A DNA stretch of 18,486 nucleotides from the IMG/VR virus record IMGVR_UViG_2681813135_000006. One strand, 5' to 3'. Shown here piece by piece: positions 993 through 10,959 of this stretch. This stretch comes from a virus. Taxonomy: Duplodnaviria; Heunggongvirae; Uroviricota; Caudoviricetes. Numbering within the stretch: the first letter of the stretch is position 1; the number at the start of each line of letters is the position of its first letter. The position numbers were made by a program, and so were the translations under genes. The notes below the pieces were generated by a model. That model was not told where the DNA came from, ran no database searches, and was given only the letters and a program-made list of their open reading frames with translations.

Positions 993-1207
993 TATTCCCC
1001 CCTGGCGGCTTTGCGCCGGTCCTCTTTGATTTTGAAATACAGGTTTGTCAGATACGTCAGCAGCCCGAACACCAGGCTGCCAAGCACACCAATGGCTGCC
1101 CACTGCGATGGTGACACCTGGTCAAGCAACTGCAGGCTCCAGTAACCAGCGTTAGTCGCTGATGCACCATAGGCGATGCCAGTGGTTAGTTTTTCCATGC
1201 GTAACAT
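992..1207 (-). CDS. Class II holin, phage 21 S21 pinholin-like, with dual-start motif (M1-L-R-M4)
   Basis: 71 aa; sequence [14 protein letters not shown]...[42 protein letters not shown] matches recalled S21 pinholin. Both M1 and M4 are ATG; strong SD GGAGGTG sits 6 nt upstream of the first ATG. Two predicted TM segments. Confidence 0.85.
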
Positions 1208-1307
1208 GCTCTCACCTCCGATTATTTCGGGGTGCTATGTGTAATGGGGATCAGGCTCTCGGGCTGCATTAACAACAAGGCTTGTTGAGGAGGTTTCCCG
1301 GAGCCTG

Positions 1308-1335
1308 AAAAAGAAAAGGCCCGCGTATGCGAGCC
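1308..1335 (-). terminator. Putative intrinsic terminator on the minus strand between Q and the lysis genes (candidate tR'-like site)
   Basis: Minus-strand RNA GGCUCGC-AUAC-GCGGGCC (7-bp stem, one G-U pair) followed by UUUUCUUUUU; about 100 nt upstream of the holin start. Confidence 0.5.
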
Positions 1336-1590
1336 TCTATAAATTCTTTGCCACTTCCCGGAGTGGCCACGCTCATGCCCTTGAGCTGCTGTCGCATCAT
1401 CGCCGCTTATCACCGGTGCGCGTCTGGCTTTCGCGCTGCTTTACCGGAGCTATTTTTAATCTATGAACCCTGACCCGTCACTACACAGGCTCGCTCAATG
1501 GCGACTCGGGGCAGCATCATGACTGCTGCATTGCCTTTCGGCTACGGTGTGTCCGTTCTACTCTACATTTTCATACCCTCCAGAAACGGC

Positions 1591-1620
1591 AAAGCCCCGC
1601 GGGGTTAACCGCAGGGCTTT
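1591..1620. other. Strong 12-bp hairpin (one G-U pair) of unknown function in the Q-to-holin intergenic region
   Basis: aaagccccgcggggttaaccgcagggcttt is nearly self-complementary around a ttaacc loop. No long U tract follows on either strand, so it is not a canonical terminator. Confidence 0.4.
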
Positions 1621-1715
1621 AAACGAAGGCAGTAACCCATCGTTGGAGAGAAATTAACACAGATTCGGGAAAAGTAAATAGCTCACGATAAAATCGACAG
1701 CGATTAATTGGTGCT

Positions 1716-3331: not shown

Positions 3332-3538
3332 TCACCCCCAGACCTTCTGACGGAGTGACCGCGGCGTACGTTCCTGCCGGTGCGCCTCCGGCAGCCGGGC
3401 GCTGACGGTCCAGGTGACGTAATCGGGATTCAGGCTTCGCTCTACCTTCACGCCGCGGCGCCGGTATTCCGCCATGAGCTCGTCGGCCTGCTGCGTGGTG
3501 CACTCGGTGTGCTGGAACCATGTTTCTTTCATCGGCAT
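3332..3538 (-). CDS. Small hypothetical nin-region protein (about 66-68 aa)
   Basis: ORF in the ninE-equivalent position; candidate starts are GTG 3541, ATG 3538 and ATG 3532, with the upstream gene's TGA overlapping. No recognisable family. Confidence 0.5.
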   Translation of the reverse strand: MPMKETWFQHTECTTQQADELMAEYRRRGVKVERSLNPDYVTWTVSARLPEAHRQERTPRSLRQKVWG

Positions 3539-4137
3539 CACCCCACGAAGCTCATGAGCTGCGCAGCGGCATTATCCGCGTCGCTACGGCTCTTGAATGC
3601 CCTGGACAGGATCCAACGCCACAGAACATCGAGTGCGGCCCTGTAGAGTTGCTGGAACTCGGTTTCGTCCATATTGGCGAAGGCGATGCTGCGGGGGTGT
3701 TTGCGGAGGGTGCCGTCAGGCAGCTGTATCGCGTCGTAGTGGCCGGATTCGATGGTTACCCAGGCGCGGTAGGCGTCGAATGACTTGCAGGCGCTGATGC
3801 TGCCCGTGCGCTTATCAGCGATGCGCTCGAGATATTGCTCAGCGGCATCCAGCAGCGCCCCTTCGTTCCCGCCGTAGGAGGCCAGAAATCTGGCATAGCC
3901 GGTCACCAGCTTGCGTTCGTTGGAAGAGATCGCCCCGCCGGTTGGCTCCCAGTATTCGAACCCGAGGTTTAAAAGCGCGAAGAAGCGGCGGTGGAAAGCC
4001 GGATTGCGGACCTGTTTGAAGTCGGCTACCAGCACGGCGCCGAGTTTGATTTTTGATTGCAGAATATCGCTGGTCTCCGGCGTCGCGGGGATCAGGATTC
4101 CTGATGACTGCTTGATGAGTTGTAGTTCGTGCGCCAT
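3538..4137 (-). CDS. Conserved prophage nin-region protein of about 199 aa (possibly DUF1367-like; tentative)
   Basis: ATG at 4137 with SD GGAGAG 6 nt upstream; long ORF in the same direction as the flanking phage genes. Family assignment is by recall only. Confidence 0.65.
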   Translation of the reverse strand: MAHELQLIKQSSGILIPATPETSDILQSKIKLGAVLVADFKQVRNPAFHRRFFALLNLGFEYWEPTGGAISSNERKLVTGYARFLASYGGNEGALLDAAEQYLERIADKRTGSISACKSFDAYRAWVTIESGHYDAIQLPDGTLRKHPRSIAFANMDETEFQQLYRAALDVLWRWILSRAFKSRSDADNAAAQLMSFVG

Positions 4138-4171: not shown

Positions 4172-4420
4172 TCAGACCGTTGATTTCATATTATCAGAAG
4201 GTTGGGTTACCCGGTAGCCGAGACGGTTAATAAACTGCATAAAACCATTAGGAGTAAAGACCTCTTCATCATCCAGCAAAGGCCGCATAGAAACCATGCC
4301 ATTGACGCGATAAATTAGATGCCTGCCCGATGAAGGAAAGCTAAACACCACGCAGCCGTCAGACCTTCTTACAATGTCATACCAGTTGTCTTCTGACGTT
4401 TGCAAAGCTGAATCACTCAC
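4172..4420 (-). CDS. Hypothetical 82-aa protein downstream of the dinI-like gene
   Basis: GTG start at 4420 with AGGGAG upstream; no family recognised. Confidence 0.45.
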   Translation of the reverse strand: MSDSALQTSEDNWYDIVRRSDGCVVFSFPSSGRHLIYRVNGMVSMRPLLDDEEVFTPNGFMQFINRLGYRVTQPSDNMKSTV

Positions 4421-4537
4421 ATTTATGTTCTCCCTTCGAGCGACTAACAGACGCGATTAAAGATTGTCGGCAGCAGCATCAGAGGGTTACGCAAATTGCG
4501 GTATTCTGAAAAATGCGCGCCAGCCTTAAGCGCAATT

Positions 4538-4771
4538 CTAATAAAACCAGTCGTCAGCGCTTTCCCAGGTATCCTGGAGGATTGATTCAATTTTCTTTTT
4601 ATCGTCCTTGTCACCACCAAAAACACTTAACCCATCGGCCCCGGCACGGCGGATTGTGAGCCTGCAATTGTCATAGTGATCATTCAGGCGCTTAAGCAGT
4701 TCTTTCTCCAGTGCTGGTACTGCGCCTTTAGGAAGTTCTTTCATGCGATCAATGGTTAATTCAACTTTCAT
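4538..4771 (-). CDS. dinI: DinI-like DNA-damage-inducible protein; start re-called to ATG at 4771
   Basis: MKVELTIDR...LSVFGGDKDDKKKIESILQDTWESADDWFY parallels E. coli DinI (MRIEVTI...ISEILQETWESADDWF) by recall. A LexA box lies immediately upstream. Confidence 0.85.
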   Translation of the reverse strand: MKVELTIDRMKELPKGAVPALEKELLKRLNDHYDNCRLTIRRAGADGLSVFGGDKDDKKKIESILQDTWESADDWFY

Positions 4772-4789
4772 AATGGCCCCCATTGCATG

Positions 4790-4809
4790 TACTGTGTTTT
4801 TATACAGTA
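4790..4809. promoter_or_regulatory. LexA (SOS) box, TACTGTGTTTTTATACAGTA, upstream of the dinI-like gene
   Basis: CTGT-N8-ACAG palindrome matching the E. coli consensus TACTGT(AT)4ACAGTA at 16 of 20 positions; 19 nt upstream of the dinI-like ATG and overlapping a plausible -10 region. Confidence 0.75.
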
Positions 4810-4871
4810 TACCTATGCGCGGAAATGATCAACGTTTTAAGAGCACAAATTGTTAATTTTCTGTCAGTTGT

Positions 4872-4899
4872 AAAAAAAGAAAACCCGCCGTAGCGGGTT
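4872..4899 (-). terminator. Rho-independent terminator on the minus strand
   Basis: Minus-strand RNA AACCCGC-UACG-GCGGGUU (perfect 7-bp stem) followed by UUCUUUUUUUU. Confidence 0.7.
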
Positions 4900-5262: not shown

Positions 5263-5826
5263 TTGAAGCGAGTAGAGCGCGATTTTATCTGTCTGTTTAA
5301 TTGTGTGTGGTATCAAGATTTCCCTGTGTTCAAAGGTGAATATATCAACCGTTCCAACTGGACCATTCATGTTGGCCTGGTCATGCGCGAGTGTGCAAAG
5401 TTAATGGGCGCAAGAACATTTTTTGAACAAGGCGGGCGTACCGATGCGGTCCTACAATATCCAGACAATCAAATTTTAACCTATGTTGAGTGGGAGTATA
5501 ATCAGGCAGACAGAGATAGCGTTAACGAGTTAGACAAACTGCTTGAAAAAAACGACAAGTGCTATTTCTCCACATTCATCTCATATTGTCAGCATGAAAA
5601 CATCAATATTGTTATTGAAAAAGCAAGTAGAATATGGAGTGAAGCAAGCAGGCCTTTGATTTTTTTTCTTATCACCTATGAGCCTCAAACGAAAAAACGC
5701 CGCCATTTTTTAGAACTCAGAACTTATTTTTTCTCAAACGGCAAAAGAAAACTAGTTCGCAAACAACCTGCGCTTCCATGGGATATTGAGCAACGAAAAT
5801 ACAATGTCGAAGAAGATGCAGGATAG
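5263..5826 (+). CDS. Hypothetical 187-aa protein encoded in an AT-rich island on the opposite strand to the flanking phage operon (candidate moron/accessory gene)
   Basis: TTG start at 5263 immediately after a very strong SD (GGGGGGGAGG at 5251-5260). Visibly AT-rich coding sequence. No TM segment or family recognised. Confidence 0.6.
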   Translation: MKRVERDFICLFNCVWYQDFPVFKGEYINRSNWTIHVGLVMRECAKLMGARTFFEQGGRTDAVLQYPDNQILTYVEWEYNQADRDSVNELDKLLEKNDKCYFSTFISYCQHENINIVIEKASRIWSEASRPLIFFLITYEPQTKKRRHFLELRTYFFSNGKRKLVRKQPALPWDIEQRKYNVEEDAG

Positions 5827-6493: not shown

Positions 6494-6526
6494 CAAGAAA
6501 AATCCTAAATAAATGGAATATTGTTT

Positions 6527-6907
6527 ATGGCTAAGAAAATCGCATTACTGGGCTTTTCTGCTCTTTTTGTTGCAAGTGTTGCTTTTGCTGAAACGACAAG
6601 TAACTGGGTTGAGGTTACTACAGCTGATGATGGCATTTTTTCAGCAAAAAAAGGCACATTTAGAAATGTAAAAGGTGATTCATCTGCCTTGTTCATGTAT
6701 CAAACAAAAAATAAAAAAGTAGAGTACTACAAAGTTAGTATTAAAGATGCCGACTGTGATAGTGGATATGGGGAGATAAGATTCTTCTATATGGATGGGA
6801 AATTAGCTTTCAAAGGTGATTATGTTGCTGATGGGAACAGTGTTGGCGCAGGTATTGGTGATTTTATGTGTGGAGTCAGAATTGGACTTAACACACAAAA
6901 AAGTTAA
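6527..6907 (+). CDS. Secreted/periplasmic protein of unknown function (126 aa, Sec signal peptide, 2 Cys)
   Basis: From ATG 6527: MAKKIALLGFSALFVASVAFA followed by ETT, a typical signal peptide with an AXA cleavage motif. Mature part is Gly/Asp/Lys-rich with two Cys. AT-rich; the TTG at 6521 in the ORF track is probably not the start. Confidence 0.7.
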   Translation: MAKKIALLGFSALFVASVAFAETTSNWVEVTTADDGIFSAKKGTFRNVKGDSSALFMYQTKNKKVEYYKVSIKDADCDSGYGEIRFFYMDGKLAFKGDYVADGNSVGAGIGDFMCGVRIGLNTQKS

Positions 6908-9615: not shown

Positions 9616-10173
9616 TCATAGCGCACCACCCAGCATCGTTGTAACCATCGCCATAATGGGCGCCACAGAATCAGGTCCGTCCAGGTAGAGCTTGGCTACG
9701 ATGCTCTCGCTGATTTCCTTCATCCGTTCGTGTCTGGGGGCTTTGAGGACGACAGCCTGTATCGCCTCAGCGTCTTCTTTCACCGACCTGGCGACACGAA
9801 CCGCAAAGCAGTCGTGCTTAATCACGCGATCCCGGTACGCCAGCGGCAGAACCGAAATTATTACCGGCGCCAGCTGCTCGACGTTCGCCCGGTAGGCCGG
9901 TGATTTCTCGTGGTTGTCCAGCCAGCGAAACAGCTTCACGTTCCACACATCGGCGCTGCCGGTCATGTCAATGCTGTCAAGCTCGGCCTGTTCGGCAGCC
10001 TCTTTAATCGCCAGAGCGACCGCCACGCGGCCCTCTGCCGCCGCCCAGGCGCGGACGGCAGAACAGATAGCCCGGTGATCGACCGGCTGGCCTTCAGCCT
10101 CACTGTGTTGATACTGGAATTTCAGGTGCTCTGATGGCGCTCTGTTATTCTGTTGAAAAGAAAGTGTTTGCAT
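9616..10173 (-). CDS. YdaT-like/CII-position regulatory protein (185 aa)
   Basis: ATG at 10173 with AGGAG SD. Directly downstream of the Cro/YdaS-like gene. The motif LAPVIISVLPLAYRDRV resembles the recalled Rac YdaT; family is tentative. Confidence 0.55.
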   Translation of the reverse strand: MQTLSFQQNNRAPSEHLKFQYQHSEAEGQPVDHRAICSAVRAWAAAEGRVAVALAIKEAAEQAELDSIDMTGSADVWNVKLFRWLDNHEKSPAYRANVEQLAPVIISVLPLAYRDRVIKHDCFAVRVARSVKEDAEAIQAVVLKAPRHERMKEISESIVAKLYLDGPDSVAPIMAMVTTMLGGAL

Positions 10174-10184
10174 TGTCAGTGCTC

Positions 10185-10403
10185 CTACTTTGGTAATCCG
10201 TCAGTGGGATTTGGATAGAGATCAGGGCGCAGCTCGTGGGGGGTTACGCCTGTCATTTTGAAAATCGGGAAGATATAGCTTGGCGGGACGATCCCTTGGT
10301 CACGATTCTTCCAATGACTTACAGACATACTCGTCACACCAAGCGCGATGCTGAGCTTTCTGGCAGAGCCAGCGGCTTTAATTGCTTTATCGAGTGCGGA
10401 CAT
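10185..10403 (-). CDS. Cro/YdaS-like HTH regulator (72 aa), divergent from the repressor
   Basis: ATG at 10403 with AGGAG 6 nt upstream. HTH-like KAAGSARKLSIALGVTSMSVSHWKN. Position and size match cro/ydaS in an immunity region. Confidence 0.75.
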   Translation of the reverse strand: MSALDKAIKAAGSARKLSIALGVTSMSVSHWKNRDQGIVPPSYIFPIFKMTGVTPHELRPDLYPNPTDGLPK

Positions 10404-10505
10404 GTGCTTCTCCTGCTTATTGATAGCAGAAGTAAACCACAGATTTATACTTCATGCAAACTTTGGATTTATTGCGTGCATAAACCAAATATTTACAATG
10501 ACCAT
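10404..10505. promoter_or_regulatory. Divergent immunity-region promoter/operator segment between the Cro-like and repressor genes
   Basis: AT-rich 102-bp intergenic region. For the repressor: -35 TTGCGT (10472-10477), -10 TACAAT (10494-10499), with no SD before the ATG at 10506 (leaderless-like). Pseudo-palindromes such as TTATTGCGTGCATAA are candidate operators. Hexamer assignments are inference. Confidence 0.5.
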
Positions 10506-10895
10506 ATGAGAAAAGAAGAACCCAACCTCGTTCTGGTGGAGCGCCTTACTGAGATCACTGATCGCGGCGTTACCAAAGCAGACATGGCAAGAATAGCTGG
10601 AGTCACCCCTCAGGCCGTAAACGGCTGGTTCAAAAAAGGCGTGATTAGTAAGAAATCGGCACTGGCCATAGCCGACGCTGTTGGTATTTCTGTCGCCTGG
10701 CTACTCGGTGAAGACGTTGGGGAGAAAGACGGTCTCAAACCGGACGAACAGCGTTTGCTCGAGCTCTACCGCCAGTTACCGGAAGAAGAGCAGCAGAACA
10801 TGCTCCGCATTTTTGCGCTTCGCCTGAAAGAGTTAGATGAGCTGTACGAGAAGTACATGAAGGGTCGGATTCGATCGCAAGGTGAGCAAACCTAA
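10506..10895 (+). CDS. Prophage repressor, XRE-type HTH, 129 aa, without an S24 peptidase (autocleavage) domain; RacR/CI-like role
   Basis: ATG at 10506. HTH TKADMARIAGVTPQAVNGWFKKG; the C-terminal half is a charged helical region (LLELYRQLPEEEQQNMLRIFALRLKELDELYEKYMK). Divergent from the Cro-like gene. The ORF-track N-terminal extension (from 10236) crosses the promoter region and was rejected. Confidence 0.8.
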   Translation: MRKEEPNLVLVERLTEITDRGVTKADMARIAGVTPQAVNGWFKKGVISKKSALAIADAVGISVAWLLGEDVGEKDGLKPDEQRLLELYRQLPEEEQQNMLRIFALRLKELDELYEKYMKGRIRSQGEQT

Positions 10896-10959
10896 ACCAG
10901 TAGTATCTAATTCCATGTAATAAAAATATTTCAAGATTTAATATCTTCTGGAGGATTCG

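Follow-up and report, generated by a model that had tools for sequence, protein, structure and literature searches.

The window (the whole stretch of viral DNA that was analysed, 18,486 nucleotides) is a prophage of Escherichia coli. Over 7.2 kb it matched the ES7 chromosome at 100% identity; with strains PSJ-22 and NCTC11023 its identity was 99.9%. The prophage is of the Gifsy/Rac-like lambdoid type. One arm carried the genes for an integrase, a DUF4060 protein, RecT and RecE. In the immunity part, the repressor gene faced cro and cII genes of the YdaS and YdaT type, respectively. The next part contained O, a DUF977 gene and a dATP/dGTP pyrophosphohydrolase gene. Two unannotated ORFs on the opposite strand separated the latter from an SOS operon, after which the DUF1364, RusA, YlcG, Q, holin and lysozyme genes were found. 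The integrase, recE/recT, O, Q, holin and lysozyme genes and the immunity region were all intact within the window. Two RefSeq pseudogene fragments (a DUF2570 protein and an exoribonuclease domain) were located nearby. A search of the window against Rfam gave no match.

The operon lay on the minus strand, with the gene order dinI homologue, 82-aa ORF and DUF1367/irsA homologue. From upstream to downstream, the features of the operon and its control region were as follows:

4882–4899, minus strand: terminator-like hairpin found by a terminator scan, AACCCGCTACGGCGGGTT followed by a T run, G+C-rich
4806–4832, minus strand: putative sigma-70 promoter P(dinI-gfoA), from manual reading and conservation
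4790–4809, no strand assigned: LexA (SOS) box of 20 bp, TACTGTGTTTTTATACAGTA, reading TACTGTATAAAAACACAGTA in gene orientation
4538–4771, minus strand: dinI homologue, first gene of the operon (Pfam DinI, E 3.8e-26)
4516–4534, minus strand: short hairpin with a T run in the dinI-gfoA spacer, a weak hit of the terminator scan
4172–4420, minus strand: predicted gfoA orthologue of 82 aa with a GTG start (4420), from homology, operon slot and primers
3538–4137, minus strand: irsA homologue (DUF1367), third gene of the operon (Pfam DUF1367, E 6.4e-93)

The 800 bp around this locus showed 98.9% nucleotide identity with the viable coliphage mEp237 and 86% with Salmonella phage SEN34, and the dinI 3' end with the spacer was approximately 90% identical to Gifsy-1 and Gifsy-2. 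The module was carried by 52 of the 5,426 complete E. coli genomes, and in 44 complete E. coli genomes its conservation was 99% or higher.

The hairpin at 4882–4899, a putative terminator, insulates the SOS operon from upstream read-in. An equivalent hairpin was present upstream of the Gifsy-2 dinI, and every Gifsy LexA box is preceded by such a terminator (Lemire 2011, PMC3121763). The putative promoter consisted of a -35 hexamer TTGATC (4832–4827) and a -10 hexamer TATACT (4811–4806) with a spacer of 15 nt, and identical hexamers and spacing were observed in Gifsy-2 and in Citrobacter loci. A sigma-70 consensus scan allowing spacers of 16–18 nt found no promoter at dinI, and for this reason the promoter stays putative; the short spacer and the failed scan are points against the SOS model. 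In Gifsy-1, a single SNP within the -10 of PdinI-gfoA is enough to abolish induction and phage production (Owen et al., PMC5322425). The LexA box was the sole match in the window to TACTGTATATATATACAGTA at three mismatches or fewer, and none of 200 dinucleotide-preserving shuffles contained a match. It was also the only CTGT-N8-ACAG site of the 18.5 kb. Its three mismatches to the consensus were all in the AT-rich centre, and both the CTGT/ACAG arms and the flanking TA were intact. The first four bases of the box corresponded to the last four of the putative -10, a geometry found again in Gifsy-2 and related loci. The overlap of a LexA box with the dinI promoter, proposed in an earlier sequence-only reading of this DNA, was thus borne out, the promoter itself being putative.

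That reading had also described a dinI-like gene followed by an 82-aa gene, and both genes were recovered; every coordinate given in the reading proved correct. The dinI homologue scored 91.6 bits against Pfam PF06183 (gathering cut-off 24.2) and was named a DinI family protein in RefSeq. Its start was refined to the RefSeq ATG at 4771, the raw ORF list having used an upstream ATG at 4783. Against the NCBIfam DinI model (E 3.7e-26) the score of 91.4 was below the equivalog cut-off of 111, which suggests a phage paralogue and not the chromosomal DinI. The spacer between dinI and the 82-aa ORF was 117 nt long. Its hairpin, possibly a partial terminator, existed in Gifsy-2 and was missing from many related loci. 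The RNA fold of the whole spacer was not unusually structured (z = +0.79). An attenuator is not claimed here, the fold being ordinary and the hairpin with its T run not being family-wide. The irsA homologue started 34 nt after the 82-aa ORF, a position equal to that of STM1020/irsA in Gifsy-2.

The 82-aa ORF is a hypothetical protein in RefSeq and matched phrog_340, a PHROGs family of unknown function. It showed no match to Pfam, NCBIfam or PDB sequences, and the DinI domain was absent from it in the Pfam scan. GfoA and GfoR sequences were obtained with the help of the primers published for these genes and by scanning IMG/VR for exact matches. The gfoR 5' primer, used as an exact pattern, was present in ten IMG/VR contigs. 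Most of them encoded a 131-aa protein with the GfoR termini MKEKTHQIN.. and ..EKYMKGRIRTRED, and three of the ten also encoded a GfoA-type ORF. The 3' end of the gfoA of strain 14028 (..GATATA) gave no match in an exact-match scan of viral contigs. As this allele itself was not retrieved, the closest allele linked to gfoR served as the reference for the identity: the 82-aa ORF was 91% identical to the GfoA allele on the gfoR-carrying contigs (E 9e-58). Its termini matched the published gfoA primers pp866, pp867 and le163. The primer-derived ends were ATG-AGTAATTCAGCTTTGCAA (MSNSALQ) and ..CGTCGTCTCGGCTACCGGGTAACACCACCTTCTGATATA (..RRLGYRVTPPSDI), and those of the window ORF GTG-AGTGATTCAGCTTTGCAA and ..NRLGYRVTQPSDN, so that the N-terminus read MSNSALQK.. 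in the gfoA primers and MSDSALQT.. in the window ORF. The ORF occupied the slot between dinI and irsA, outside the immunity region and behind the LexA box and terminator.

BLASTP of the 82-aa ORF against GftA of Gifsy-2 gave no similarity (E 0.94); GfoA, of another clade than GftA, was the appropriate reference. The GfoA-family profile aligned weakly with GftA in hhalign (probability 68%, E 4.9e-5, 66 columns), a match which, at the level of profiles, agrees with the distant relationship reported in PMC3121763. The AlphaFold2 model of the ORF was of moderate quality (pLDDT 67.6), with four strands and one helix, and a Foldseek search of the PDB with this model found no match (best E 2.5), so that the fold gave no clue to the mechanism. 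The gfoA ORF was under purifying selection, with dN/dS values of 0.05–0.25 in all pairs whose dS exceeded 0.05; one near-identical pair was uninformative. By its sequence, the assignment of the 82-aa ORF as a GfoA-type antirepressor is supported.

The features of the immunity region that bear on the target of such a protein were the following:

10506–10895, plus strand: repressor of the GfoR/GfhR/DicA family, 129 aa, with an HTH domain and a helical C-terminal domain
10433–10495, no strand assigned: candidate operator repeats in the gap between repressor and cro, TAAACCACAGATTTA and TAAACCAAATATTTA, from a repeat search and the sequence
10185–10403, minus strand: Cro-like gene (YdaS family), divergent from the repressor (Pfam YdaS_toxin, E 1.4e-13)
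9616–10173, minus strand: CII-like gene (YdaT family; Pfam YdaT_toxin, E 1.5e-17)

RefSeq starts the repressor at a GTG at 10476, 30 nt upstream, whereas the alignment with GfoR favours the ATG at 10506. An HTH_3 match was found at residues 20–66 (E 1.5e-6). In the AlphaFold2 model (pLDDT 83.6) a five-helix HTH domain (residues 8–66) was followed by a flexible linker and by helices at 81–90 and 93–126, the protein being all-helical after residue 66. Foldseek retrieved only XRE-type HTH domains with this model, for example those of P22 c2, 434 and SinR. A PDB sequence search with the repressor returned polyubiquitin matches limited to a 23-residue stretch, which were spurious and were discarded. 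The Pfam scan detected no Peptidase_S24 in the repressor, including the whole 219-aa upstream-extended ORF. The sequence-only reading had given this protein an HTH and a helical C-terminal region with no S24 domain; the Pfam scan and the structural model agree with this description, and the hidden cleavage domain that would have contradicted it was not found even on the extended ORF. Judged by its domains, the protein is not an autocleavable repressor of the Lambda CI or LexA type.

Over 117 aa, the repressor shared 62% identity and 84% similarity with GfoR (E 2e-54); its identity with DicA of Qin was 28% (E 5e-12). Its C-terminal domain (50 columns) shared 80% identity with that of GfoR and 88% with that of the mEp237 repressor; for the N-terminal domain the values were 46% with GfoR and 62% with the GfhR-like mEp237 repressor. 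The 46% identity with GfoR in the N-terminal domain is a point against the SOS model. On these comparisons the HTH domain is of a third immunity type, distinct from those of GfoR and GfhR, and the operators should therefore differ from those of GfoR. The candidate operator repeats had the pattern TAAACC-N5-ATTTA.

One genome per species was scanned with a degenerate pattern, which revealed 27 loci with a GfoA homologue (52–96% identity) in other Enterobacteriaceae species, distributed over Citrobacter, Enterobacter, Leclercia, Atlantibacter, Silvania, Raoultella, Siccibacter, Superficieibacter, Pseudocitrobacter and Mangrovibacter, plus one unclassified isolate. In all 27, a CTG-N10-CAG box that departed from the consensus at one to five positions was present upstream, in the corresponding place. 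A dinI gene was detected by tblastn between box and gfoA in 21 of the 27, the DUF1367 gene was directly downstream of gfoA in most of them, and a GfoR-family repressor was located 5–10 kb upstream, beside a YdaS-type cro, in 18. Nearly all the homologues inspected had a GTG start behind a conserved GGGGA-type ribosome-binding site, and the GTG start was found in all the dinI-containing related loci inspected.

Previous work on the Gifsy prophages of Salmonella described the same arrangement: a terminator-like palindrome, a LexA box, a dinI homologue, a small antirepressor gene and an irsA homologue (PMC3121763). The antirepressors GfoA (Gifsy-1), GftA (Gifsy-2) and GfhA (Gifsy-3) have a non-canonical start codon, and the repressors GfoR, GtgR and GfhR are not cleaved during induction (PMC3121763). 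The lexA3 allele blocks the induction of Gifsy-2, and when PBAD replaces the LexA-box region of this prophage, induction occurs with arabinose and not with mitomycin C (PMC3121763). GfoA and GftA accumulate after mitomycin C treatment in Western blots, pull-downs showed GfoA with GfoR and GftA with GtgR, and in gel shifts GtgR leaves the operator DNA when GftA is present (PMC3121763). Prophages of Escherichia, Citrobacter, Klebsiella and Enterobacter have likewise conserved the region from dinI to irsA, along with homologues of GfoA and GfoR (PMC3121763).

Sequence comparison thus makes it very likely that a Gifsy/Rac-like lambdoid prophage of E. coli has its SOS input in this region, built like that of Gifsy-1. 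By analogy with the Gifsy systems, the resident repressor is very probably a target of the GfoA-type protein of the window; as for the action of this GfoA allele on this particular repressor, we infer it by homology with the Salmonella systems. We propose the following sequence of events. In the lysogen, the host LexA bound to the box at 4790–4809 would cover the -10 of the promoter and keep dinI-gfoA-irsA silent, while the upstream terminator would block read-in to the operon. Upon DNA damage, RecA would become active, LexA would cleave itself and the operon would be transcribed. The GfoA-type 82-aa protein, made from a weak GTG start, would build up and bind the dimer of the repressor encoded at 10506–10895, the complex being, by analogy, probably an A2B2 assembly. 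The repressor would be released uncleaved from operators located between 10404 and 10505, for which the repeats at 10433–10495 are candidates. The early lytic genes (cro/YdaS, cII/YdaT, O and others, together with the recE/recT arm) would then begin to be transcribed. This implies that the switch should be reversible once the damage is repaired, since the repressor survives.

It is also conceivable, but improbable, that the protein is a functional GfoA-type antirepressor for which the resident repressor is not the target, or not the sole one. It would then act mainly in trans, on other GfoR-family prophages of the same cell, as with FsoA of Fels-1, and the prophage of the window would be induced otherwise or not at all. 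The pairs of antirepressor and repressor are indeed clearly shuffled. Over 17 pairs, the divergence of GfoA was uncorrelated with that of either repressor domain (Spearman about 0), and no co-variation was found between GfoA and these domains. In one of the related loci (L012) the module goes together with a CI-like repressor of 210 aa that bears a GDSM S24 motif. Trans-acting antirepressors are documented in Salmonella, where GtgR is insensitive to GfoA (PMC3121763). Against this stands the C-terminal domain of the window repressor, 80–98% identical to those of GfoA-paired repressors, including GfoR and that of mEp237. Moreover, the window ORFs that were scanned all lacked an S24 domain, and no second antirepressor or other induction device was seen in the window.

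The action on the resident repressor is therefore retained as the preferred reading, and the same comparisons led to a further, tentative proposal. Among the repressors compared, the mean identity was approximately 84% for the C-terminal domain and 62% for the HTH domains, and it was approximately 65% for the GfoA proteins. The HTH domains and the GfoA proteins diverge and reassort freely relative to the repressor C-terminal domain. The latter, a helical domain of 50–55 residues, may perhaps represent a shared docking module for the GfoA-type antirepressors. If so, in an E. coli polylysogen a single GfoA made upon SOS induction would set off all the prophages that have this domain, those of the third immunity type of the window included, and a gfoA next to a CI/S24-type repressor, as in L012, would act purely in trans. 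This would extend the cross-talk described in Lemire 2011, where GfoA inactivates GfoR as well as GfhR despite their different operators (PMC3121763).

DinI alone modulates RecA filaments, and the operon could in principle be an accessory SOS-modulating locus of the DinI type (a “moron”), with an 82-aa ORF unrelated to induction. The absence of any assigned function for this ORF in PHROGs, Pfam, NCBIfam and RefSeq would agree with such a role. The explanation is nevertheless very improbable, given the 91% identity with an antirepressor proven both genetically and biochemically, and it is opposed by the composition of the related loci. In five of these (L024–L027 and L030) dinI was not found by tblastn, and the box was located approximately 170–190 nt upstream of gfoA; in L031 dinI was missed by tblastn, yet a dinI-like sequence followed the box. 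The conservation of box and gfoA without dinI indicates that the antirepressor, and not DinI, is the constant cargo of the LexA-controlled promoter. In addition, non-polar deletions of dinI and irsA do not significantly change the induction of Gifsy-1 and Gifsy-3 (PMC3121763). A decaying remnant with a vestigial circuit, for which the nearby pseudogene fragments and the view of only part of the prophage (18.5 kb) might speak, is the least credible explanation of all, because gfoA is under purifying selection and the module is present in a viable phage, mEp237, and is so highly conserved among complete E. coli genomes, the genes for integration, recombination, immunity, replication and lysis being intact in the window as well.

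The sequence-only reading had put forward the 82-aa ORF as a candidate LexA-gated antirepressor. Its identity with GfoA, its slot in the operon and the GfoR-family repressor in the same window argue for this candidacy. The likeness to Gifsy, offered there as an analogy, holds and goes further, the window having in fact this very gene family and operon; the idea was therefore right but not new. The finding is a correct rediscovery of a mechanism known since 2011. Its value lies mainly in annotation, this gene being unnamed in RefSeq, PHROGs, Pfam and NCBIfam despite a proven homologue with 91% identity, and the module being present in many other Enterobacteriaceae besides E. coli. Recognising the module predicts an SOS induction that proceeds via LexA and not by repressor cleavage, that is reversible in principle, and that may be joint for co-resident prophages sharing the repressor C-terminal domain. 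This is of relevance to prophage induction by DNA-damaging antibiotics, and opens no new question.

Among the known systems, Gifsy-1 of Salmonella Typhimurium ATCC14028 was the closest in organisation. The two shared the gene order, the upstream terminator and the LexA box overlapping the promoter. They also shared an antirepressor with a non-canonical start (the window ORF having its 91% identity with the GfoR-linked GfoA allele), a repressor of approximately 130 aa with an HTH and a helical C-terminal domain but no S24, and divergent cro and cII of the YdaS/YdaT type. They differed in the host, E. coli for the window, and in the repressor HTH, which is of another immunity type. The GfoA of the window was six residues longer at the C-terminus (..PPSDNMKSTV) than the 14028 allele implied by the primer (..PPSDI), and the start codon of gfoA was GTG in the window as compared to TTG in Salmonella-type viral contigs.

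In the free-living E. coli phage mEp237, the block from the LexA box to dinI, gfoA and irsA had 98.9% nucleotide identity with that of the window, and the two GfoA proteins differed at 2 of 82 residues. The mEp237 repressor started with MEKVKHH and ended with ..AKYMNRRIRGDAD, resembling the primer-derived ends of GfhR (Gifsy-3), and its gene was annotated with a longer N-terminal extension, unlike in the window. Its N-terminal domain was only 62% identical to that of the window repressor, so that the two phages are probably heteroimmune. The GftA/GtgR pair of Gifsy-2 resembled the system of the window in its operon slot and LexA control, with a distant kinship of GftA to the GfoA family; GftA belongs to PHROG family 4847, in contrast to 340 for the window ORF. 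[quoted passage not shown]

The short non-cleavable HTH repressor DicA of the Qin prophage (E. coli K-12) belongs to the family of the window repressor. DicA is inactivated by a small antirepressor, Rem, which was found by PSI-BLAST from GfoA and for which, unlike the gfoA of the window, no LexA control is reported (bioRxiv 10.1101/2023.04.14.536235). An hhalign comparison of the GfoA family, as a shallow profile, with Rem found no relationship. Tum of phage 186 and AntC of N15 are, like the predicted GfoA of the window, antirepressors under LexA repression; their target is a non-cleavable repressor, and a DinI moiety is associated with them. However, Tum is a 146-aa fusion with the antirepressor half first, whereas the window has separate genes with dinI first. 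From its sequence, the region belongs to the Gifsy LexA/antirepressor system, and is neither a Tum-type fusion nor a CI/S24 system.

The GfoR-family repressors are modular. When the window repressor (10506–10895) was compared with the repressors of the related loci L005–L030, of the free-living coliphage mEp237 and of L033, the HTH domains were of at least three types, with a mean pairwise identity of 62% and a minimum of 42%. The mean identity was 84% over the 50 columns of the C-terminal helical domain, which was thus more conserved than the GfoA proteins (65%). The divergence of GfoA was not correlated with that of either the HTH or the C-terminal domain of the repressors.

RefSeq starts the window repressor at GTG 10476, giving 139 aa. 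The ATG at 10506 (129 aa) is favoured by the alignment with GfoR, a protein expressed experimentally. Upstream of the repressor start, the reading frame is open as far as 10236, which is reminiscent of GfhR*, the longer form of the Gifsy-3 repressor seen during induction. A TAAACC-N5-ATTTA repeat, whose copies are candidate operators, was present in this region:

10433–10447, repeat in the repressor–cro interval, candidate operator
10481–10495, repeat in the repressor–cro interval, candidate operator
10885–10899, partial copy at the 3' end of the repressor

The GfoA family (window 4172–4420) has no entry in Pfam or NCBIfam; it corresponds to phrog_340, of "unknown function" in PHROGs, and is labelled "hypothetical protein" in RefSeq. 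The family was characterised experimentally in 2011 (PMC3121763), and this is an annotation gap, the databases giving no function despite those experiments. The primers le163 and pp867 imply that the ATCC14028 allele ends in ..PPSDI (PMC3121763), whereas the window gene, compared with them at 4172–4192, and most homologues end in ..PSDNMKSTV. A 1-nt indel could account for the two different ends (GATAATATGAAA against GATATATGA), and the final six residues are probably dispensable.

Further features in and near the SOS operon were as follows:

4516–4534, minus strand, short hairpin and T run directly past the dinI stop codon
5263–5826, plus strand, ORF of 187 aa, RefSeq hypothetical protein at 5263–5826
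6521–6907, plus strand, ORF of 128 aa, RefSeq hypothetical protein with a later start (6527–6907)

The hairpin could be a partial terminator, cutting antirepressor output relative to DinI. It also occurs in Gifsy-2 upstream of gftA, an unrelated gene; it is absent in many related loci, and the folding of the dinI–gfoA spacer is not unusual (z = +0.79). DinI itself seems to be a passenger that the SOS promoter can do without, since dinI was not found by tblastn in five Silvania/Leclercia loci (L024–L027 and L030) which keep a LexA box approximately 170–190 nt upstream of the gfoA homologue (locus positions 9810–10001). The two ORFs, both without a Pfam match, have the replication region on one side and the SOS operon on the other. 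They are opposite in direction to the neighbouring early-right genes and are candidate accessory (moron) genes.

A LexA box–dinI–gfoA-like module was also present in L012, a locus of Enterobacter quasihormaechei:

10001–10216, gfoA homologue
1047–1679, minus strand, CI-like repressor of 210 aa with a GDSM S24 motif

As this lambda CI-like protein was the sole HTH repressor found within 10 kb, the arrangement suggests that prophages with a cleavable repressor can host the antirepressor module, which would then act in trans, like FsoA, the trans-acting antirepressor of Fels-1.
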